Shown here: piece after piece, positions 5,707-50,094 of the stretch
Numbering within the stretch: the first letter of the stretch is position 1
Layout of the letters: every line of letters begins with the position of its first letter
NCBI RefSeq assembly: GCF_048403405.1
Contig: NZ_CP183129.1
Source: Escherichia coli
GTDB lineage: Bacteria > Pseudomonadota > Gammaproteobacteria > Enterobacterales > Enterobacteriaceae
Reading direction: 5' to 3' (one strand)
Length of the DNA: 64,000 bases
The notes under the pieces: generated by a model
The model's input: the letters and a program-made list of their open reading frames with translations, nothing else
The model's database searches: none
What the model was told of the DNA's origin: nothing
Program-made: the position numbers and the translations under genes

Positions 5707-6210
5707 TTAAATTTTCTTATGTAATAGAGGTGAATAATCTTCCCAAAAATCCATACAAGCTTTACTTGCATAAAAGAATCCAGCGTCTGATTCATAAGAC
5801 ATAAACTGTGCAATAATAGATAGTTGTATATCTGAAAAATTAAAAACAAAATTCAAAAAATCATCGTGATCCCGATACTCAGGACATAAATATTGTTGAA
5901 TAAAATCGGATTCAAAAACCCAAAAATCATTCTTATTAAACAACGAGGCATAAATATACAGAGGGATGTAATAGCAGAATACTTTCTCAGGGAGGAATGT
6001 AATTCCTAACTCTAAAGCATAAGAGTCATCCTTTATTTTAAAATTGTTGGCTATTTCATTCCATTGTTTCTTTTGGAAAAAATTATATACAATATCCAGT
6101 TCCTCCAGCCCTGTAATATCATTTGAAATATGAGGTAATGGCTGGCATGGGAAATGAATCATAAGTTCATCATAGACTGCACTCTCGTTAGAGAAAATTA
6201 TTTTTTTCAT
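5707..6210 (-). CDS. Putative RhsC-associated immunity protein (RhsI-type)
   Basis: AT-rich ORF directly downstream of rhsC. The ATG at 6210..6208 ([20 protein letters not shown]...) overlaps the rhsC TGA (6209..6207) in an ATGA arrangement. The track start at 6228 is a TTG extension. No recognisable catalytic motifs; position is typical for an Rhs immunity gene. Confidence 0.7.
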
Positions 6211-9200
6211 TTTATTAAGCCACTGCAATCAGCTGCTGTTTTATATGCTTTATTCTCTTCTTCCATATGGGCCTTATCTCCACCACCAAAGCACTGATTA
6301 TTAATCTGCTTTCTGACCGAAGCGCACGCCAAATTTATCTCGTACCGTCTCAATATTTCTTTTCTCAGCATCTGAGGAGCGCAAGCTCTAGACTGGTTAC
6401 ATAATCTGTTTTTTTCATTTTGTAAGTCACTCAGGTTCTGGGGACTACAGTTACCACCAGGATTTACACCTGACTTATGTTCATCTGTTAATTTGTCGGC
6501 TTCTGGATTAACTTTACGGCCATATTGATCTCTGCGTTGTTGCCCACTTTGGATAACACCACCTGATGAAAATAAACCGCAACTCATCAGTGCTACAACA
6601 CTAAGAATTAACGGATTTAACCCTTGTGGGTCTATCTCTGAGATCGGATTTAACGGATACTGATAAAAATTCCATCCCCCCTTAAGCCCAATCGGATCCT
6701 GAGTGATATACCGCCCCTGCAGCGGGTCATAATAGCGGTGGCGGTTGTAATACAGGCCGGACTCCTCATCATACTGCTGACCCGGCAGGCGGATGAGCTG
6801 CTGCAGCTGATGCGGGTTCTCTTCATTCAGCAGGTTGCCCCATTCATCGTATTCTGCGTACCACGCTGTTGTCCCTTCCGTGCTGACAAGCGCCAGCGGC
6901 AGGCCGCGATGGTCGCAGTGGTACAGGTGGATTTTTCGCGCCGGCGTGTACACCGGGTCCATCTGGTTTTGCATCTGCTCCACCGTCAGGCCGCACGATG
7001 CCAGCCAGCGGCGGCTTTCCTCGCTCACCCGGTCAGTAAGGATTTCACTTTCCAGCCGGTCGAGCATCTGCACCAGCACCGGCGGGAACACCACTCTGCC
7101 ACCGTCTTCGCCGCCGGACTGCTGAAGGGCATCCGCCAGGCTGCGGCGCTGCGTTTTCGCCAGCTCACCGGTGGCGGTTTCAACTCTGATGAGTGGCGTG
7201 AAGCTCCCCGGCTGATAAACCGTCTGGATGCGGGTTCTGTCGTTCTGTATTGTGGTCAGCCGGTCGCCGTCCCAGCCGTACCAGGTCACTTCCGGTTTCC
7301 GTGACAGCGACATCCAGCCCGTCAGGTCCCGTTCACGCCGCCATACCCGTTTTGCCACCCTGCGGCCCAGCGGGTCGTAAAGATAGCGACTTTCGACCAG
7401 CGGCTCTGCATATTGTGTCCGCGTGTAGTGCACCAGCCGGTGCCGGCTGTCGTAATGATACCGGTGAGTCCGCTCATCATCCGTGCGGATAACCCCTTCC
7501 GGGATGAGGTCGGTTTTCTCTGTCAGCCTGCCGTGACGGTCATACCGGTAAAGATAGTGCGCGTCACGGGCGATACGGTTATCCGGCCACATGCTGAGGG
7601 TGCTGTCCGGGTGCAGCTCCGGGTCGGGCAGGCGGTTGCCTGCCGGGTCCGTGGCATACGGGATGCGGATATCCAGATTCGCTGCGGTGGTGTGGACGCC
7701 GGTCAGCCTGCCGGTGTCGCTGTAGCTGTAACTCCGGGTCTGGCGCGGGCTGCTGATGCGGATGAGTTCGCCGTTGTCGTTCCAGGTGTAATCGCGGTCA
7801 TACTGCAGGCTGTTCAGGTGCTGGCTCTGTAACTGCCCGGCAGAGGTGTAAGCGGTGGTGAGTTCATAACGGCCGAAGCTGCGCAGCGTTTCCCGGTGCA
7901 GGCGGTCGCGGGTGAAATCCACCAGCGGTGTGTCGCCGAGTTTCATGCCTGACAGCCAGCCGCTGCCGTAGGTCAGCCATTCCACGGCGGGCAGGCTGTC
8001 CGGTATACAGCGGTTCGCCAGTCCCTGCGCGTTGTACGCATGTCTGGTTTCATGCTGCCAGAGCAGTGCTTCCGTCTGCGGGTGATGCACCGTCTGGCGC
8101 TCACCGGTCAGGCGGCCTTTCTCATCATACCCGTAATGCACCGTCACCCGGTGGCCTTCGCTGAGATGGCTGATGCCTGTCAGCCAGCCGCGTTCGTCAT
8201 ACTGCCACTGCTCTGCAGGTTCACCCTTCACGGTGCGGTGAGTGAGGCGGTCTGCTTCGTCATAGTGCCAGTGGGTGACCAGCCCCTCATCCTCGCTGCG
8301 GATAAGTTTACCGGTCAGGTCGTGGTGATAACGCTGTGTGCGGCCGTCAAAGCCGGTTTCCTGTATCAGCCGGTCAAGTACATCGTAACGGAAGGTGGTG
8401 TGGCTGCCGTTTTCACTGGTCAGGCGGATGACCCGCCCGGCAGCATCGTATTCCATACTGCGCGTCAGACCGCCCTGCGTGGTACGAACGGGCTTTCCCC
8501 ACGCATCGTACTGTGTCCCGTTTCTGCTGCCGTCCGGGGCAATGACGGCGGTCAGGTCACCGGCGGCGTTGTATTCATACCGCGTTTCATGGCCCTGCGT
8601 GTCTTTCACCGCAATTAACTGTCCACGGCTGTCGTATGCGCGGTACTGACTCAGCCCTTCCTCGCGGTGCACCGCCGTCACCTGACCAAAACGGTCATGG
8701 TCATAACGGGTTACATAACCGGAACAGTCAGTGACGGTCAGCAACTGACCGTAACGGCTCCATGTCATGGTTTTCCGGCTGCCGGTGGCATCTTCCGTTG
8801 CGCAGGGTAAGTCACTGTGTGGATTATCATAACGGTAGCGGGTGATATCGCCGTTGTGTGCGGTTTCCTGAATCAGACGGCCGGATTCATCATATTTGCG
8901 GCGCAACTCCAGCCCGTCAGTCCCGGTGGCTGACGTTAACTGGTTGTGGTGGTTATAGTAAAATGCCGATGCCCTGCCATCCGGTGTGGTGATGCGCGTG
9001 ATGAGTCCCGTCACCACATCCGGGCTGTACTCAGTCGTCCGGCCTGCGGCATCCGTCTGTGCCTTAAGCCCGCCCACCGCGTCAAACTGACTCTGCGTGA
9101 CGCTGCCGTCCGCGTGTTCCTTTTTCACCACCCGCTTCAGCCCGCCTTCGCCCTGCGTGTGCAGCACTTCACGGCGGTCCAGACTGTCGGTGATGGTGAT

Positions 9201-43887: not shown

Positions 43888-45552
43888 ATGTGTTCAATTT
43901 TTGGCGTATTCGATATCAAAACAGACGCAGTTGAGCTGCGTAAGAAAGCACTCGAACTGTCACGCCTGATGCGTCATCGTGGCCCGGACTGGTCCGGTAT
44001 TTATGCCAGCGATAACGCCATTCTCGCCCACGAACGTCTGTCAATTGTTGACGTTAACGCGGGGGCGCAACCTCTCTACAACCAACAAAAAACTCATGTG
44101 CTGGCGGTAAACGGTGAAATCTACAACCACCAGGCACTGCGCGCCGAATATGGCGATCGTTATCAGTTCCAGACCGGATCTGACTGCGAAGTGATCCTCG
44201 CGCTGTATCAGGAAAAAGGGCCGGAATTTCTCGACGACTTGCAGGGCATGTTTGCCTTTGCCCTGTACGACAGCGAAAAAGATGCATATCTGATTGGTCG
44301 CGACCATCTGGGGATCATCCCACTGTATATGGGCTATGACGAACACGGTCAGCTGTATGTGGCCTCAGAAATGAAAGCCCTGGTGCCAGTTTGCCGCACG
44401 ATTAAAGAGTTCCCGGCGGGGAGCTATTTGTGGAGCCAGGACGGCGAAATCCGTTCTTATTATCACCGCGACTGGTTCGACTTTGATGCAGTGAAAGATA
44501 ACGTGACCGACAAAAACGAGCTGCGTCAGGCACTGGAAGATTCCGTTAAAAGCCATCTGATGTCTGACGTTCCTTACGGTGTGCTGCTATCTGGTGGCCT
44601 GGATTCCTCAATCATTTCCGCGATCACCAAGAAATACGCCGCCCGTCGCGTGGAAGATCAGGAACGCTCTGAAGCCTGGTGGCCGCAATTACACTCCTTT
44701 GCTGTAGGTCTGCCGGGTTCACCGGATCTGAAAGCAGCCCAGGAAGTGGCAAACCATCTGGGCACGGTGCATCACGAAATTCACTTCACTGTACAGGAAG
44801 GTCTGGACGCCATCCGCGACGTGATTTACCACATCGAAACCTATGATGTGACCACTATTCGCGCTTCAACACCGATGTATTTAATGTCGCGGAAGATCAA
44901 GGCGATGGGCATTAAAATGGTGCTGTCCGGTGAAGGTTCTGATGAAGTGTTTGGCGGTTATCTTTACTTCCACAAAGCACCGAATGCCAAAGAACTGCAT
45001 GAAGAGACGGTGCGTAAACTGCTGGCCCTGCATATGTATGACTGCGCGCGTGCCAACAAAGCGATGTCAGCCTGGGGCGTGGAAGCACGCGTTCCGTTCC
45101 TCGACAAAAAATTCCTCGACGTGGCGATGCGCATTAACCCACAGGATAAAATGTGCGGTAACGGCAAAATGGAAAAACACATCCTGCGTGAATGTTTTGA
45201 GTCGTACTTGCCCGCAAGTGTGGCCTGGCGGCAGAAAGAGCAGTTCTCCGATGGCGTCGGTTACAGTTGGATCGACACCCTGAAAGAAGTAGCGGCACAG
45301 CAGGTTTCTGATCAACAGCTGGAAACTGCCCGCTTCCGCTTCCCGTACAACACGCCGACGTCCAAAGAAGCGTATCTGTACCGCGAGATCTTTGAAGAAC
45401 TGTTCCCGCTTCCGAGCGCCGCTGAGTGCGTGCCGGGCGGCCCTTCCGTCGCGTGTTCTTCCGCTAAAGCGATCGAGTGGGATGAGGCGTTCAAGAAAAT
45501 GGACGATCCGTCTGGTCGTGCGGTTGGTGTTCACCAGTCGGCGTATAAGTAA
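43888..45552 (+). CDS. asnB: Asparagine synthetase B (glutamine-hydrolysing)
   Basis: Start at ATG 43888 (MCSIFGVFDIK, catalytic Cys2), preceded by GGAGAAGG; PP-loop SGGLDSS present; 554 aa. The track ORF is extended 27 codons upstream. Confidence 0.95.
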   Translation: MCSIFGVFDIKTDAVELRKKALELSRLMRHRGPDWSGIYASDNAILAHERLSIVDVNAGAQPLYNQQKTHVLAVNGEIYNHQALRAEYGDRYQFQTGSDCEVILALYQEKGPEFLDDLQGMFAFALYDSEKDAYLIGRDHLGIIPLYMGYDEHGQLYVASEMKALVPVCRTIKEFPAGSYLWSQDGEIRSYYHRDWFDFDAVKDNVTDKNELRQALEDSVKSHLMSDVPYGVLLSGGLDSSIISAITKKYAARRVEDQERSEAWWPQLHSFAVGLPGSPDLKAAQEVANHLGTVHHEIHFTVQEGLDAIRDVIYHIETYDVTTIRASTPMYLMSRKIKAMGIKMVLSGEGSDEVFGGYLYFHKAPNAKELHEETVRKLLALHMYDCARANKAMSAWGVEARVPFLDKKFLDVAMRINPQDKMCGNGKMEKHILRECFESYLPASVAWRQKEQFSDGVGYSWIDTLKEVAAQQVSDQQLETARFRFPYNTPTSKEAYLYREIFEELFPLPSAAECVPGGPSVACSSAKAIEWDEAFKKMDDPSGRAVGVHQSAYK

Positions 45553-45863
45553 GAAATGCGGTACTGCCCCGGAGAAATCCGGGGCTGTTTTAGTTATTGA
45601 GCTGCTTGTTGATTCTGATATGCAGTAAGGAAATGTTCCGGGTTTGCCACATCACTGTTTGACAACTCATCACTGTAGGCCAGTACTTCATAGATTAATT
45701 TCCCACCACTATTGTTGAATTCCGAATTTCATCCTGTATGACAAAAGAATGGCTGTAGGGTGGGGAAAAAACACAAAGTAAACAATAATTGACGAATATA
45801 GCGCCACGCTGTTCGCAACCTAACCAAACAGTCACTTTCGAGCAATTTTCCTTGAAAAAGAGG

Positions 45864-45892
45864 TTGACGCTGCAAGGCTCTATACGCATAAT
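45864..45892 (+). promoter_or_regulatory. metT tRNA-operon promoter (-35 ttgacg, 17-bp spacer, -10 cataat, GC-rich discriminator)
   Basis: Read directly upstream of the first tRNA; the GC-rich discriminator gcgccccgc is typical of stringently controlled stable-RNA promoters. Confidence 0.55.
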
Positions 45893-45931
45893 GCGCCCCG
45901 CAACGCCGATAAGGTATCGCGAAAAAAAGAT

Positions 45932-46008
45932 GGCTACGTAGCTCAGTTGGTTAGAGCACATCACTCATAATGATGGGGTCACAGGTTCGAATCCCGTCGT
46001 AGCCACCA
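45932..46008 (+). tRNA. metT: tRNA-Met (CAU), elongator
   Basis: 77-nt cloverleaf ggctacgtagctcagttggttagagcacatcactCATaatgatg...agccacca with encoded CCA. Confidence 0.9.
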
Positions 46009-46016
46009 TCTTTTTT

Positions 46017-46101
46017 GCGGGAGTGGCGAAATTGGTAGACGCACCAGATTTAGGTTCTGGCGCCGCAAGGTGTGCGAGTTCAAGTCTCGCCTCCCGCACC
46101 A
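46017..46101 (+). tRNA. leuW: tRNA-Leu (UAG)
   Basis: 85-nt type II tRNA with long variable arm; anticodon loop ...agatTTAGgtt...; ends gcacca. Confidence 0.9.
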
Positions 46102-46124
46102 TTCACCAGAAAGCGTTGTACGGA

Positions 46125-46199
46125 TGGGGTATCGCCAAGCGGTAAGGCACCGGTTTTTGATACCGGCATTCCCTGGTTCGAATCCAGGTACCCCAGCCA
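46125..46199 (+). tRNA. glnU: tRNA-Gln (UUG)
   Basis: tggggtatcgccaagcggtaaggcaccggtttTTGataccgg...ccccagcca. Confidence 0.9.
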
Positions 46200-46233
46200 T
46201 CTTCTTCGAGTAAGCGGTTCACCGCCCGGTTAT

Positions 46234-46308
46234 TGGGGTATCGCCAAGCGGTAAGGCACCGGTTTTTGATACCGGCATTCCCTGGTTCGAATCCAGGTAC
46301 CCCAGCCA
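46234..46308 (+). tRNA. glnW: tRNA-Gln (UUG)
   Basis: Identical copy of the previous tRNA-Gln(UUG). Confidence 0.9.
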
Positions 46309-46323
46309 TCGAAGAAACAATCT

Positions 46324-46400
46324 GGCTACGTAGCTCAGTTGGTTAGAGCACATCACTCATAATGATGGGGTCACAGGTTCGAATCCCGTCGTAGCCACCA
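46324..46400 (+). tRNA. metU: tRNA-Met (CAU), elongator
   Basis: Identical copy of the metT sequence. Confidence 0.9.
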
Positions 46401-46448
46401 AATTCTGAATGTGTCGAATATGTTCGGCAAATTCAAAAACCAATTTGT

Positions 46449-46523
46449 TGGGGTATCGCCAAGCGGTAAGGCACCGGATTCTGATTCCGGCATTCCGAGG
46501 TTCGAATCCTCGTACCCCAGCCA
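46449..46523 (+). tRNA. glnV: tRNA-Gln (CUG)
   Basis: tggggtatcgccaagcggtaaggcaccggattCTGattccgg...ccccagcca. Confidence 0.9.
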
Positions 46524-46550
46524 ATTTATTCAAGACGCTTACCTTGTAAG

Positions 46551-46625
46551 TGCACCCAGTTGGGGTATCGCCAAGCGGTAAGGCACCGGATTCTGATTCC
46601 GGCATTCCGAGGTTCGAATCCTCGT
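46551..46625 (+). tRNA. glnX: tRNA-Gln (CUG)
   Basis: Identical copy of the previous tRNA-Gln(CUG). Confidence 0.9.
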
Positions 46626-46629
46626 ACCC

Positions 46630-46662
46630 CAGCCACATTAAAAAAGCTCGCTTCGGCGAGCT
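46630..46662 (+). terminator. Rho-independent terminator of the tRNA operon (aaaaaagctcgcttcggcgagctttttgctttt)
   Basis: Stem gctcgc/gcgagc with ttcg loop and a T-run. Confidence 0.75.
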
Positions 46663-46757
46663 TTTTGCTTTTATGAAATCCGAAAAAATCACCCATACAT
46701 AGTGGTCGTTAATGACCAGTGATACATTGCCTGCCTTCATAACAAAAGGATCTTGCA

Positions 46758-47342
46758 ATGAATTATCAGCTATTCTCACCATTCTTTACCAAAGTCATCA
46801 TGCTGCTTATCGCATTGCTTTGCATTGTTCTTGCCTCATTTGGTATTTCTGCCCCATTTTGTTACATCGTTTTTATCGGCATCATTTTCCCCGTTGCTAT
46901 ATCAATGCGCATACACCGTCTCAATGAAACAGGAACAGCACTCACACTAACCGAAAGCTCACACTGGATCGTTTACATCCATGGTTTTCCAGCTGAGGAA
47001 CAACGTGAAGTTTTGAAAAACCCCTGTTTCTGGTCAACAGAAAGAGTGAAACAGTTTTTCCTTCGCGGTCTTGCTGGCAAGGTTATTCTTCAACTCGCCT
47101 GCCTTGCACTTCTGGTCAATGAATATTTCCGCTCAACACCAGGTTCCGGGCAAGACTTACTCGCAGCAGGCGTGCTGTTTTTTATTTTGTTTTCGATAAG
47201 CAAAAATTTCTGGACGATGTATCTTCTCGCCACAGATAAATGGCAGTGCGAATCCCTGACCACCACCAGCGGTAGCCTTTGGTATCAGGGATTTCTGTGT
47301 AAAGGAAACAGAAGAGTTACGCTGTTTTCGCGGCTGGTGTAA
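46758..47342 (+). CDS. Hypothetical small membrane protein in an AT-rich tRNA-adjacent segment
   Basis: 194-aa ORF with two or three hydrophobic segments at the N-terminus (LLIALLCIVLASFGISAPFCYIVFIGIIFPVAI); convergent with ubiF with a 6-bp gap. The composition is visibly more AT-rich than its neighbours. I do not recognise the product. Confidence 0.45.
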   Translation: MNYQLFSPFFTKVIMLLIALLCIVLASFGISAPFCYIVFIGIIFPVAISMRIHRLNETGTALTLTESSHWIVYIHGFPAEEQREVLKNPCFWSTERVKQFFLRGLAGKVILQLACLALLVNEYFRSTPGSGQDLLAAGVLFFILFSISKNFWTMYLLATDKWQCESLTTTSGSLWYQGFLCKGNRRVTLFSRLV

Positions 47343-47348
47343 CAGCTA

Positions 47349-48524
47349 CTACAACCCTAACGCATATTTCAGCGCCTGACGTTTCAACATGCCAGCACGC
47401 TCCGCCGCCATCAAACCAAGATTACGCACAAAACGCAGTGGTGGCAGATTATTGCTGAATCCGGCATAGAACAGATCCATACCGCTCTGCATAATGAAGT
47501 TATCCGCCATGCGCCGCATCTGGTAACGCTTGAGGATCGGATAACTGGCCCACGCTTCGCCATAGCTGCGAGCGTTGACCAGAACGTCAATCAGGGCATC
47601 GACATCACGATAACCAAGATTCACCCCCTGCCCCGCCAGCGGATGGATGGTATGCGCGGCATCGCCCACCAGCGCAAGCCCCGGCTGCACATACTGCAAC
47701 GCATGGCGGCGCGTCAGCGGAAAAGCGCCAGCGGCAAGCGGTGTTACATACCCAAGACGCGACGGGAAATGCTTCGCGATTTCCGCCTGTAACTGCGCCA
47801 TATTCATATTCTGCAACTGGCGAATGCGTGCCGGAGAGTCATACCACACCAGCGATGCCCAGTTATCAAACAACGGCAGAAACGCACGAGGTCCATCCGG
47901 GGTAAATTGCTGCCAGGTGCTGTCGCCGGGATCGTTCTCACACTGTACGCTAATTAACATACACGACTGTGCATACTGCCAGGCATGAACGCCAATTCCC
48001 GCCATCTGCCGCACCTGGGAATTTGCGCCGTCGGCACCAATCACCAGCTTCGCGCGGATCGTTTCACCGCCCTTCAGTTCCAGCTCCTGAAGATCATTAT
48101 GGCGATGCAGCGCAATCAGCGAGCCTGGCACACGTAACGTTACTTTCGGATGCGCTTCCAGCGCCTGCCACAGCGCCTGTTGCAGAACAGTGTTTTCCAC
48201 CATGTAGCCAAGCACAGGCAGCTTTAATTCGGCTGCATCAAACACCACATGCGCCGTTTCCCACTCCCAAGTTTCCAGTCTGCGGTAAGGATGGCAACGC
48301 ATAGCCTGTACCGCGTCCCAGACGCCTAAACCTTTAAGCAATGATACCGAAGCCGCACTGATCGCCGAGATCCGCACGTCCGGCTGGCTATCAACAACAA
48401 ACGTCGCAGATTGGGCATGTTCGATAACCGTTACCGAAAATCCGTGCTGAGCCAGTCCCAGCGCCAGTGCGCCGCCGACCATTCCTCCGCCGACAATGGC
48501 AATTTCCGTTGGTTGATTTGTCAT
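47349..48524 (-). CDS. ubiF: 2-octaprenyl-3-methyl-6-methoxy-1,4-benzoquinol hydroxylase (flavin monooxygenase)
   Basis: Start set at MTNQPTEIAIVGGGMVGGALALG (FAD GxGxxG fold); about 391 aa. The track ORF begins 2 codons upstream at a TTG. Confidence 0.93.
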   Translation of the reverse strand: MTNQPTEIAIVGGGMVGGALALGLAQHGFSVTVIEHAQSATFVVDSQPDVRISAISAASVSLLKGLGVWDAVQAMRCHPYRRLETWEWETAHVVFDAAELKLPVLGYMVENTVLQQALWQALEAHPKVTLRVPGSLIALHRHNDLQELELKGGETIRAKLVIGADGANSQVRQMAGIGVHAWQYAQSCMLISVQCENDPGDSTWQQFTPDGPRAFLPLFDNWASLVWYDSPARIRQLQNMNMAQLQAEIAKHFPSRLGYVTPLAAGAFPLTRRHALQYVQPGLALVGDAAHTIHPLAGQGVNLGYRDVDALIDVLVNARSYGEAWASYPILKRYQMRRMADNFIMQSGMDLFYAGFSNNLPPLRFVRNLGLMAAERAGMLKRQALKYALGL

Positions 48525-48669
48525 GGTCAATCATCCTGTTAGCAATATGCTTTAAGTTTACAGGATTTTTACCCCTAAGGGCTGATAACGCTCATACTGG
48601 TCACAACGGCAGCAAAGCATTACACTATGCGCCCTGCATTCCTGGCTACTATTTCGCAAGAGCAAGTCG

Positions 48670-50094
48670 ATGACCAAAAAACTCCATATTAAAACCTGGG
48701 GCTGTCAGATGAACGAGTACGATTCATCGAAGATGGCCGATCTGCTGGATGCCACCCACGGCTATCAACTGACCGACGTGGCGGAAGAAGCGGATGTGCT
48801 GCTGCTGAACACCTGCTCAATCCGCGAGAAGGCTCAGGAAAAAGTCTTCCATCAGTTGGGTCGCTGGAAACTGTTAAAAGAGAAGAATCCAGACCTGATT
48901 ATCGGCGTCGGCGGCTGCGTGGCATCGCAAGAAGGTGAGCACATTCGCCAGCGCGCCCACTATGTCGATATTATTTTTGGGCCGCAAACGCTGCACCGTC
49001 TGCCGGAGATGATCAACTCCGTGCGCGGCGACCGCAGCCCGGTTGTAGATATCAGCTTCCCGGAAATCGAGAAGTTTGACCGTCTGCCGGAACCGCGTGC
49101 CGAAGGGCCGACCGCGTTTGTCTCCATCATGGAAGGCTGCAATAAATATTGCACCTACTGCGTAGTGCCTTACACCCGTGGTGAAGAGGTAAGCCGTCCG
49201 TCCGACGATATTCTGTTTGAGATCGCCCAGCTTGCGGCTCAGGGCGTGCGTGAAGTCAACCTGCTCGGTCAGAACGTGAACGCCTGGCGTGGTGAAAACT
49301 ACGACGGCACCACCGGATCGTTTGCCGATCTGCTGCGTCTGGTTGCGGCGATCGACGGGATCGATCGTATTCGCTTTACCACCAGCCATCCGATCGAATT
49401 CACCGACGATATCATCGAAGTGTACCGCGACACGCCGGAGCTGGTGAGCTTCCTGCATCTGCCGGTACAGAGCGGTTCCGATCGCATTCTGAACCTGATG
49501 GGACGTACCCATACAGCGCTGGAGTACAAAGCGATCATCCGTAAGCTGCGTGCGGCGCGTCCGGATATTCAGATCAGTTCTGACTTCATCGTTGGCTTCC
49601 CTGGCGAAACCACCGAAGACTTCGAGAAAACGATGAAGCTGATTGCCGACGTCAATTTCGACATGAGCTACAGCTTTATCTTCTCCGCTCGTCCAGGTAC
49701 ACCAGCCGCCGATATGGTTGATGATGTTCCGGAAGAAGAGAAGAAGCAGCGTCTGTATATTCTGCAAGAGCGCATTAACCAGCAAGCGATGGCATGGAGC
49801 CGCCGGATGCTCGGCACCACCCAGCGTATTCTGGTAGAAGGTACATCGCGTAAGAGCATCATGGAGCTTTCCGGGCGTACCGAAAATAACCGCGTGGTCA
49901 ACTTCGAGGGCACACCGGATATGATCGGTAAATTCGTCGATGTAGAAATTACCGACGTCTACCCGAACTCTCTGCGCGGTAAAGTGGTGCGTACTGAAGA
50001 TGAAATGGGTCTGCGCGTGGCAGAAACACCAGAATCGGTGATTGCCCGTACCCGCAAAGAAAACGACCTTGGCGTGGGTTATTATCAGCCGTAA
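48670..50094 (+). CDS. miaB: tRNA-i6A37 methylthiotransferase
   Basis: 474 aa; radical-SAM CxxxCxxC (CNKYCTYC) plus N-terminal MTTase Cys residues and TRAM domain. Confidence 0.95.

Follow-up and report, generated by a model that had tools for sequence, protein, structure and literature searches.

A rare gene for a predicted inner-membrane protein between glnX and ubiF of Escherichia coli

The interval between the tRNA gene glnX and ubiF of Escherichia coli invites comparison with tRNA-linked genomic islands, which the segment described here resembles in its adjacency to a tRNA operon, its AT-richness, and its variability between strains. It differs from them in lacking an integrase, an att duplication, and any link to a mobile element, and in being syntenic across genera. 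A second point of reference is given by the REP/BIME palindromes, which in strain K-12 and in nearly all E. coli occupy the homologous interval as the alternative allele, while the interval analyzed here, unlike that of K-12, is free of REP sequence. Concerning the encoded protein, the bPH proteins (Pfam PF03703, YdbS/YdbT type) and the YcxB-like proteins combine transmembrane (TM) hairpins with a small cytoplasmic domain, mostly of beta structure, that comes after them and ends in a short helix. This general plan resembles the predicted secondary structure of the protein under study and is taken as a lead only; in the latter, unlike in bPH and YcxB-like proteins, the beta domain is split by the second TM hairpin. 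Closest of all are database entries for the same gene, which carry an accession but no name or family model. These are WP_001109102.1, to which the protein is identical, WP_096986900.1 of E. coli and the orthologues of E. fergusonii, which are 96-99% identical, of the same length and in the same slot, and a "putative inner membrane protein" of Buttiauxella. WP_001109102.1 is an already annotated, yet uncharacterized hypothetical protein, encoded by an ordinary accessory gene.

Organization of the locus and expression signals

The window, that is, the whole stretch of 64,000 nucleotides that was analyzed (E. coli contig NZ_CP183129.1, assembly GCF_048403405.1), contains, according to the list of open reading frames (ORFs) and the RefSeq annotation, nagD-asnB, seven tRNA genes, an ORF of 194 amino acids, ubiF, and miaB in this order. 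The tRNA genes metT-leuW-glnU-glnW-metU-glnV-glnX (Met, Leu, Gln x2, Met, Gln x2; 45932-46635, plus strand) are followed by the intrinsic terminator of the operon, which was recognized in a terminator scan as an 11-bp stem with a subsequent T tract (46641-46666, plus strand). This terminator forms the left border of a strain-variable segment of about 673 bp (46673-47345), which was delimited by alignments with K-12 and strain CFSAN061763 and comprises a leader and the ORF. The coding sequence (46758-47342, plus strand) begins with ATG, 122 bp past the last tRNA gene, and is listed in RefSeq as the "hypothetical protein" WP_001109102.1. It is the sole ORF of note in the 673-bp segment, and an Rfam scan of 45500-48700 returned the seven tRNAs and nothing else. 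Its convergent neighbor ubiF (47349-48524, minus strand) is positioned tail to tail, with 6 bp between the two stop codons, and miaB follows at 48670-50094 (plus strand), with its start at 48670 and its end at 50094.

The initial annotation had already placed a 194-amino acid ORF between the tRNA cluster and ubiF, and this description holds. The range of 46664-47348 given there contains the ORF, which proper extends from 46758 to 47342, the remainder being 5' leader. The AT-rich character of the region was likewise recognized correctly; the GC content is 0.41-0.45 across 46600-47200, compared to 0.52-0.61 in the flanks, with a value of 0.44 for the segment. The GC content at third codon positions (GC3) of the ORF is 0.451, versus 0.590 +/- 0.054 for 38 long ORFs of the window, so the low GC content does not stem solely from a composition rich in Leu, Phe, and Ile. 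Low GC3 values of this kind are also seen in foreign or poorly expressed genes.

How the gene might be expressed can be deduced from an alignment of leaders from 12 species or genera, in which the operon terminator is perfectly conserved and the block ATGAAATCCGAAAAAA is conserved as well. A candidate extended -10 element, TGaTACATT, is located at 46720-46728 (plus strand), with the TG at 46720-46721 and the hexamer at 46723-46728; positions 1, 4, and 6 of the hexamer (T, A, T) hardly vary among the aligned species. With the block read as an extended -10 element, the -12 T, -11 A, and -7 T are retained in most species. Judged by its conservation, the TGaTAcATT block would be an extended -10 promoter element, and the A tract farther upstream (46683-46688) might serve in the manner of an UP element. 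A strict scan for the sigma-70 -35/-10 consensus found no promoter for the ORF. The Shine-Dalgarno sequence AAGGA (46746-46750, plus strand), as read from the sequence, lies 7 nt upstream of the ATG, and AAAGGA or AAGGG is conserved at this site in the aligned leaders. Transcription would proceed from the gene's own conserved extended -10 element just past the tRNA terminator, and translation from the conserved Shine-Dalgarno sequence and ATG; the gene would most probably be monocistronic. The terminator scan found no terminator-like site between or just beyond the stops of the ORF and ubiF, and the transcripts of the two convergent genes may therefore overlap.

Homologues, selection, and synteny in other genera

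The homologue search suggested by the initial annotation recovered full-length relatives at 23-61% identity to the window protein. A word-indexed search of 5.8 billion proteins yielded 26 relatives, and 1.84 billion cluster representatives, searched exhaustively with HMMER, yielded 59, of which 39 had E <= 1e-10; the figure of 59 refers to clusters at 50% identity. Most relatives comprise 188-207 amino acids (about 195) and align end to end with the ORF protein. When the 5.8-billion-protein database was searched with a profile of a 36-sequence alignment, only hypothetical proteins of Corallincola were added. The family is uncharacterized and found mainly in Enterobacterales.

Selection was estimated by the method of Nei and Gojobori, with dN/dS values ranging from 0.11 to 0.28 in unsaturated pairs. 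The two E. coli alleles differ by 10 synonymous and 7 nonsynonymous changes (dN/dS 0.21, dS 0.077), and the window ORF differs from that of E. fergusonii by 9 synonymous and 3 nonsynonymous changes. Comparable values were obtained for Pseudocitrobacter vendiensis versus P. faecalis (dN/dS 0.23, dS 0.224), for P. faecalis versus a metagenome copy (dN/dS 0.11, dS 0.295), and for Klebsiella michiganensis versus K. spallanzanii (dN/dS 0.16, dS 0.83). Because its homologues are full length and dN/dS is 0.11-0.28, the ORF is more than a chance reading frame; it is an authentic gene, conserved over its full length and under purifying selection.

The arrangement of asnB, tRNA genes, the ORF convergent with ubiF, and miaB is common to E. 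fergusonii and to genomes from nine other enterobacterial genera. It is found in Buttiauxella brennerae, Intestinirhabdus alba, Citrobacter sedlakii, P. faecalis and P. vendiensis, K. michiganensis and K. spallanzanii, Kluyvera genomosp. 3, Superficieibacter electus, Enterobacter sp. BIGb0383, Kosakonia, and E. fergusonii. The initial annotation had named identification as a conserved gene among the outcomes that would refute it, and conservation across enterobacterial genera is what was found. In each syntenic genome the ORF starts roughly 100-135 bp past the last tRNA-Gln gene; the distance from its end to the convergent ubiF stop is a few to about 75 bp in most genomes and 150 bp in Superficieibacter, and in B. 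brennerae an ISL3 transposase is located between the ORF and ubiF. The contig scan was keyed on one peptide motif and missed the E. fergusonii representative, so that absences from it are uninformative.

In the other genera, identity to the window is 39-61% for the ORF protein, with the lowest syntenic value of 39% in the Kosakonia representative P0031, compared to 73-88% for UbiF and 85-97% for MiaB. Because the gene occupies the same slot across genera while its identity is well below that of UbiF and MiaB, it looks like an old, fast-evolving resident of the glnX-ubiF locus. The identities of the ORF protein and UbiF are out of step, with 60% and 76% in Pseudocitrobacter and 49% and 88% in C. 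sedlakii, respectively; since the ORF does not track UbiF, horizontal replacement between genera may also have occurred at this locus. The phylogenetic distribution of the ORF is patchy, which counts against a simple ancestral-resident reading.

Predicted structure and possible function of the protein

An AlphaFold2 model of the ORF protein, obtained with the family alignment as input, has a pLDDT of 89.0 and a pTM of 0.80. It predicts four TM helices (residues 3-27, 32-57, 94-125, and 132-158), beta strands at residues 65-74, 77-86, 163-168, 174-182, and 185-188, and a short final helix at residues 189-193. In the model, the first two strands form a beta hairpin at 65-86, and the C-terminal strands lie within 163-188. 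Lys and Arg residues number seven in the loop 51-103 and five in the tail 157-194, with none or one in the short loops. From this distribution of positive charges, both termini are predicted to be cytoplasmic, and the two beta segments would therefore lie together on the cytoplasmic face. The product is thus predicted to be a small four-helix inner-membrane protein, in line with the small membrane protein assumed initially; the N-terminal hydrophobic helices noted then are real, but according to model and charges there are four helices in all, and they are not confined to the N-terminus. The protein would insert as four TM helices with its N- and C-termini in the cytoplasm, and the loop after TM2 would pair with the C-terminal tail, the two making up a single small beta domain on the cytoplasmic side of the membrane. 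The possibility that the protein arose by internal duplication of a unit of two TM helices plus beta segment was rejected, an hhalign comparison of the two halves giving a probability of 0.75%.

In the 36-member alignment, N88 and F91 are invariant, and 90% or more of the members share S49, Y73, G76, P78, E81, and L86; the most conserved residues overall are S49, H53, W70, Y73, G76, P78, E81, R83, L86, N88, and F91. The family signature consists of a length of about 190-200 amino acids, MNYQ at the N-terminus, and three motifs, namely S-M-R-x-H, G-(F/I)-P-x-x-E-x-R, and L-x-N-P-x-F, and the window protein fits it. Conservation peaks at residues 49-93 and is lowest in TM1, TM3, TM4, and the loop 126-131. 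The stretch of highest conservation coincides with the juxtamembrane and beta-hairpin segment predicted to be cytoplasmic; the predicted periplasmic loops are variable.

The initial annotation did not assign a function, and the database searches (Pfam, NCBIfam, PADLOC, PHROGs, and PDB profiles) gave none either. Searches of Pfam, NCBIfam, PADLOC, and PHROGs with the window protein produced no meaningful match (0 families for PADLOC), and Pfam and NCBIfam searches with the 36 relatives gave noise matches to single members alone. A relationship to SLATT-type membrane effectors was considered and rejected, as SLATT_4 matched one of the 36 members (E 0.003) and the other NCBIfam matches were likewise restricted to one member; an anti-phage defense HMM of PADLOC-DB or NCBIfam recurring across family members was not found. 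The sequence-profile search of the PDB gave two matches, both with E about 1, and Foldseek found no solved or viral structural relative in the PDB and BFVD at E <= 0.001. The Pfam models of bPH and YcxB-like proteins (PF03703 and PF14317) gave no match at E <= 10 for the query and at E <= 0.01 for the 36 members; with PDB profile and structure searches also remaining without a match, membership in these families was rejected. Literature searches by accession, locus tag, ubiF/glnX, and strain name retrieved nothing relevant.

Genome context offers little further guidance. The more distant relatives, including those of Corallincola, occupy contexts unrelated to the ubiF locus. The neighborhood consists of penicillin-binding-protein-like genes and dus in Leminorella, of an ISL3 transposase and a sugar ABC operon in Pectobacterium, of an acyltransferase and an AraC-type regulator in Buttiauxella agrestis (the second Buttiauxella type), and of MOSC and LemA genes in Chitiniphilus; no conserved partner gene emerges across these neighborhoods. 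With conservation centered on the juxtamembrane and beta-hairpin core and variation on the TM helices, the latter might mainly anchor a cytoplasmic ligand- or partner-binding adaptor module, as opposed to forming a transporter or an enzyme, a proposal that we regard as speculative and rather improbable as it stands. The conserved juxtamembrane and beta-hairpin segment would then be the working part. In E. coli, the protein would appear to be dispensable under most conditions.

Polymorphism in E. coli and exchange within Escherichia

The initial annotation was unsure whether the ORF is conserved in reference strains and proposed a comparison of the glnX-ubiF spacer across strains. That comparison revealed a polymorphism between the ORF and a 113-bp spacer of the REP type, with K-12 devoid of the gene. 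Of 5,426 complete E. coli genomes, 9 (0.17%) possess the segment, and these carriers belong to two clones; the gene in E. coli is a rare presence/absence polymorphism. Seven of the nine carriers match the window segment with an identity of 99.9% or more, and at least six of these seven represent one clone, with 16.6 kb of downstream sequence 100% identical to the window. The other two carriers, 2014C-3075 and SCU-301, are mutually identical over 12.7 kb, and their allele is 97.5% identical to that of the window. In the remaining 5,417 genomes, the match is limited to the first 37-40 bases, that is, the terminator of the tRNA operon, and the REP-type spacer takes the place of the ORF in all of them. 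In K-12, 113 bp of REP-like palindromes extend exactly from the operon terminator to the ubiF stop; we take this spacer to be of the REP type from recognizing palindromes of the GCCGGATGCG/CGTCTTATCC kind. The nearest non-carrier, CFSAN061763, contains the REP spacer, yet its ubiF is 100% and its upstream region 99.97% identical to the window; homology between the two breaks at exactly 46672 and 47349, and the homology of the window to K-12 also stops at 46672. Between the REP spacers of CFSAN061763 and K-12, which are orthologous, there are 3 SNPs. Among 142 genomes with the ubiF allele of the window (at least 99% identity), 7 contain the ORF and 135 do not.

Decayed alleles exist as well. 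Truncated forms of 146 amino acids in Shigella boydii and of 161 amino acids in E. coli, the latter also with an out-of-frame N-terminus, both end in VLFLFCFR*, and further alleles are frameshifted near codon 30. The terminator scan located a terminator-like hairpin followed by T runs inside the coding sequence (47163-47193, plus strand), including a T6 run at 47178-47183; to judge from the sequences, the truncated alleles probably originated by loss of one T from this run, which would be a frameshift hotspot. The gene appears to be ancestral to the locus and to have been lost repeatedly.

The cluster at 90% identity to which the window protein belongs is dominated by E. fergusonii proteins, which are 97-99% identical to it, and three E. 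fergusonii chromosomes share the synteny of the window. The interval from the terminator to ubiF, in which the variable segment is contained, differs between the window and these three chromosomes at 15-16 of 693 positions. For this species pair, dS is 0.069 (9 differences) for the ORF, 0.267 for asnB, 0.30 for ubiF, and 0.11 for miaB. As controls, dS values of the ORF, asnB, ubiF, and miaB, respectively, are 0.22, 0.32, 0.30, and 0.30 in the Pseudocitrobacter pair and 0.84, 0.46, 0.77, and 0.38 in the Klebsiella pair, so that the ORF value is 0.7-2.2 times the flanking values in control pairs. Since in Escherichia, unlike in the controls, the ORF dS is far below that of asnB and ubiF, the Escherichia ORF alleles coalesce more recently than these flanking genes. 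The interspecies dS of miaB is also low (0.11), which weakens the argument for introgression, and this argument depends on just 9 synonymous differences. Co-import of ubiF from E. fergusonii was considered and rejected, the window ubiF being 92.6-93.1% identical to that of E. fergusonii and 93.7% to that of K-12.

Three explanations other than an authentic resident gene have been weighed. That the ORF is spurious or decaying and functionless in the strain of the window would agree with the fact that 99.8% of complete E. coli genomes do without the gene, with the frameshifted alleles, and with the low GC3 and the absence of a consensus promoter in the strict scan; we consider it very improbable, because the frame is intact in all nine complete-genome carriers, the exact window protein is recorded on 466 contigs, the excess of synonymous changes between the E. 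coli alleles (dN/dS 0.21) and toward E. fergusonii (9 versus 3) speaks for selection on the protein, and Shine-Dalgarno sequence, ATG, and -10 block are kept across species. The idea of the initial annotation that a single AT-rich cargo gene might be the remnant of an island or prophage integrated at the tRNA-Gln (glnX) hotspot has fared no better. The segment does lie immediately 3' of the tRNA operon, and it has the traits of an island in its GC content, its GC3, and its rarity among complete genomes, none of which is island-specific. Position and orientation are nevertheless constant across about eleven genera, down to a protein identity of 39%, and the variable segment begins past the operon terminator instead of at the 3' end of a tRNA gene. 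Neither the ORF list nor Pfam, PHROG, and NCBIfam searches disclosed an integrase or recombinase gene or fragment in the 673-bp segment. A duplicated tRNA 3' end (attL/attR) flanking it was not found in 46400-47600, where the only direct repeats are the tRNA-Gln genes in tandem and a single chance match of 13 nt, and tblastn searches of 50,697 phage and 72,556 plasmid records returned no homologue. The absence of an integrase or att-like repeat had been noted correctly at the outset, but with the same slot occupied in other genera, the island-remnant reading is largely refuted, and of all explanations we give it the least credence. It is also conceivable, but unlikely, that the convergent layout is functional in itself, with mutual antisense transcription tuning ubiF and hence ubiquinone synthesis, and the protein being secondary. 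The stops are 6 bp apart with no terminator-like site for either gene, tight convergence recurs in most genera, distant homologues also abut a convergent gene, and in E. coli strains without the ORF, the REP sequences could assume a role in 3'-end formation. On the other hand, purifying selection on the amino acid sequence and the confidently predicted fold argue that the protein matters, the distant homologues are not located beside ubi genes, and B. brennerae tolerates the ISL3 transposase within the convergent arrangement. Taken as a whole, the best explanation, which we hold to be likely, is an authentic, monocistronic gene for an inner-membrane protein, which is an old resident of the locus and has been replaced by REP sequence in most E. 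coli.

How the clone of the window came by its intact allele is a separate matter. Most likely, as we believe with moderate confidence, it was regained from an Escherichia donor, either E. fergusonii-like or another E. coli; exchange within the genus is suggested by the low ORF dS together with flanks identical to those of REP-bearing relatives. The intact allele would move within Escherichia by homologous recombination through the conserved flanks, with the left crossover in the invariant tRNA and terminator sequences and the right crossover in a stretch of 30-41 bp at the 3' end of ubiF over which the alleles do not differ. Alternatively, the ancestral gene might simply have been retained in two relict lineages and removed elsewhere by deletion long ago, in one or several events, recent transfer having played no part. 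The synteny with other genera, which implies old presence at the locus, is compatible with such retention, as are the frameshifted alleles, which show decay to be ongoing, and the two E. coli alleles, which are 2.5% apart with a dS of 0.077, similar to the within-species dS of nagC and miaB. Against it stand the window flanks, 100% (ubiF) and 99.97% (upstream) identical to those of REP-bearing relatives, the lack of the ORF in 135 of the 142 genomes sharing the window's ubiF allele, and an ORF dS to E. fergusonii about four times below that of asnB and ubiF. Moreover, since CFSAN061763 and K-12 have orthologous REP spacers, the REP state predates the lineage of the window, and a recent switch was needed regardless. 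Plain retention is therefore judged doubtful, and recovery of the allele from within the genus is preferred.

Summarizing, a more far-reaching interpretation would be that of a hitherto undescribed family, in which four TM helices carry a two-segment cytoplasmic beta domain with no solved or catalogued relative, and of the glnX-ubiF interval as a site of live core-gene loss in E. coli, where intact alleles are re-supplied from E. fergusonii or other Escherichia; we rate its chances as slightly less than even. For the biology of E. coli, the finding changes little, the gene being rare and dispensable. It illustrates, however, that AT-richness beside a tRNA gene need not mean an island, and that the reference strain may represent the derived state, with REP sequence in place of the ORF, while a rare strain has the old gene. 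The family, for which neither Pfam nor NCBIfam contains a model and whose confidently predicted fold lacks structural relatives, would be a candidate for registration as a new domain of unknown function, and the locus provides a compact, well-bounded case in which presence/absence polymorphism, pseudogenization at a run of six T residues, and, probably, alleles shared between species of Escherichia come together.

The convergent junction of the ORF and ubiF

The gene encoding the 194-aa predicted inner-membrane protein WP_001109102.1 (46758-47342, plus strand) and the convergently oriented ubiF are separated in the window by merely 6 bp between their stop codons (47343-47348), and at this junction a terminator was found neither for the ORF nor for ubiF. 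In most of the other genera that carry the ORF in the slot between the tRNA genes and ubiF, the junction is likewise tight, spanning approximately 6-75 bp; it is wider in Superficieibacter (150 bp) and in Buttiauxella (>1.3 kb). In Buttiauxella brennerae, the gene of an ISL3-family transposase has inserted between the ORF and ubiF (L003, the locus of this species, 6163-6909), and the close tail-to-tail arrangement is therefore not a strict requirement. In distant homologues of the ORF, the convergent downstream gene is also found adjoining or overlapping, an example being the 4-bp overlap at locus L035.

A terminator-like hairpin followed by T6-A-T4-G-T4 is present within the coding sequence itself (47163-47193, codons ~136-146). 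Deletion of a single T within T6 would account for the 146-aa allele of S. boydii and also for the shortened C terminus of the 161-aa allele found in E. coli.

Polymorphism of ubiF

The polymorphism of ubiF (47349-48530) is unusually high. The allele of the window and that of K-12 share 93.7% identity overall (92.7-95.7% per 300-bp window), with a rise to 100% identity precisely at the 5' end of the gene, and in 4,762 of the 5,424 E. coli genomes ubiF lies in the 90-95% identity band. At least three E. coli alleles, those of the window, K-12, and 2014C-3075, are 93.7-94.8% identical to one another and 92.6-94.2% identical to ubiF of E. fergusonii; that is, the distance between alleles equals the distance to that species. 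Purifying selection on ubiF is evident from a dS of ~0.25 versus a dN of ~0.016. Possible origins of the allele divergence are old balanced alleles or repeated imports.

Variation in the flanking region

A second gene of the presence/absence type, encoding the 145-aa hypothetical protein WP_000943487.1, for which no Pfam match was recorded, is found in the neighbourhood. It is located in the interval between asnB and the first tRNA-Met gene in E. coli 2014C-3075 (L021, 4484-4921, minus strand), SCU-301, and E. fergusonii (L022 and L030, each 6532-6969, minus strand), and is missing in K-12 and in the window (compared at 45553-45931). Over the region holding it, 2014C-3075 and E. fergusonii share just 81-91% identity.

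The tRNA genes vary in number, with seven in the window (45932-46635) versus six in strain 4621 of the same clone (L001, 3409-4000), which is without one tRNA-Gln CUG copy. In other genera the number ranges from six to eight through gain or loss of tRNA-Gln copies; these changes are consistent with recombination between the tandem repeats.

For miaB (48670-50094), dS between E. coli and E. fergusonii is 0.11-0.12, which is near the values within each species (0.067-0.106), while for asnB the between-species dS is 0.25-0.28. From this contrast in sequence divergence, a mosaic recombination history is suggested for this 10-kb region.
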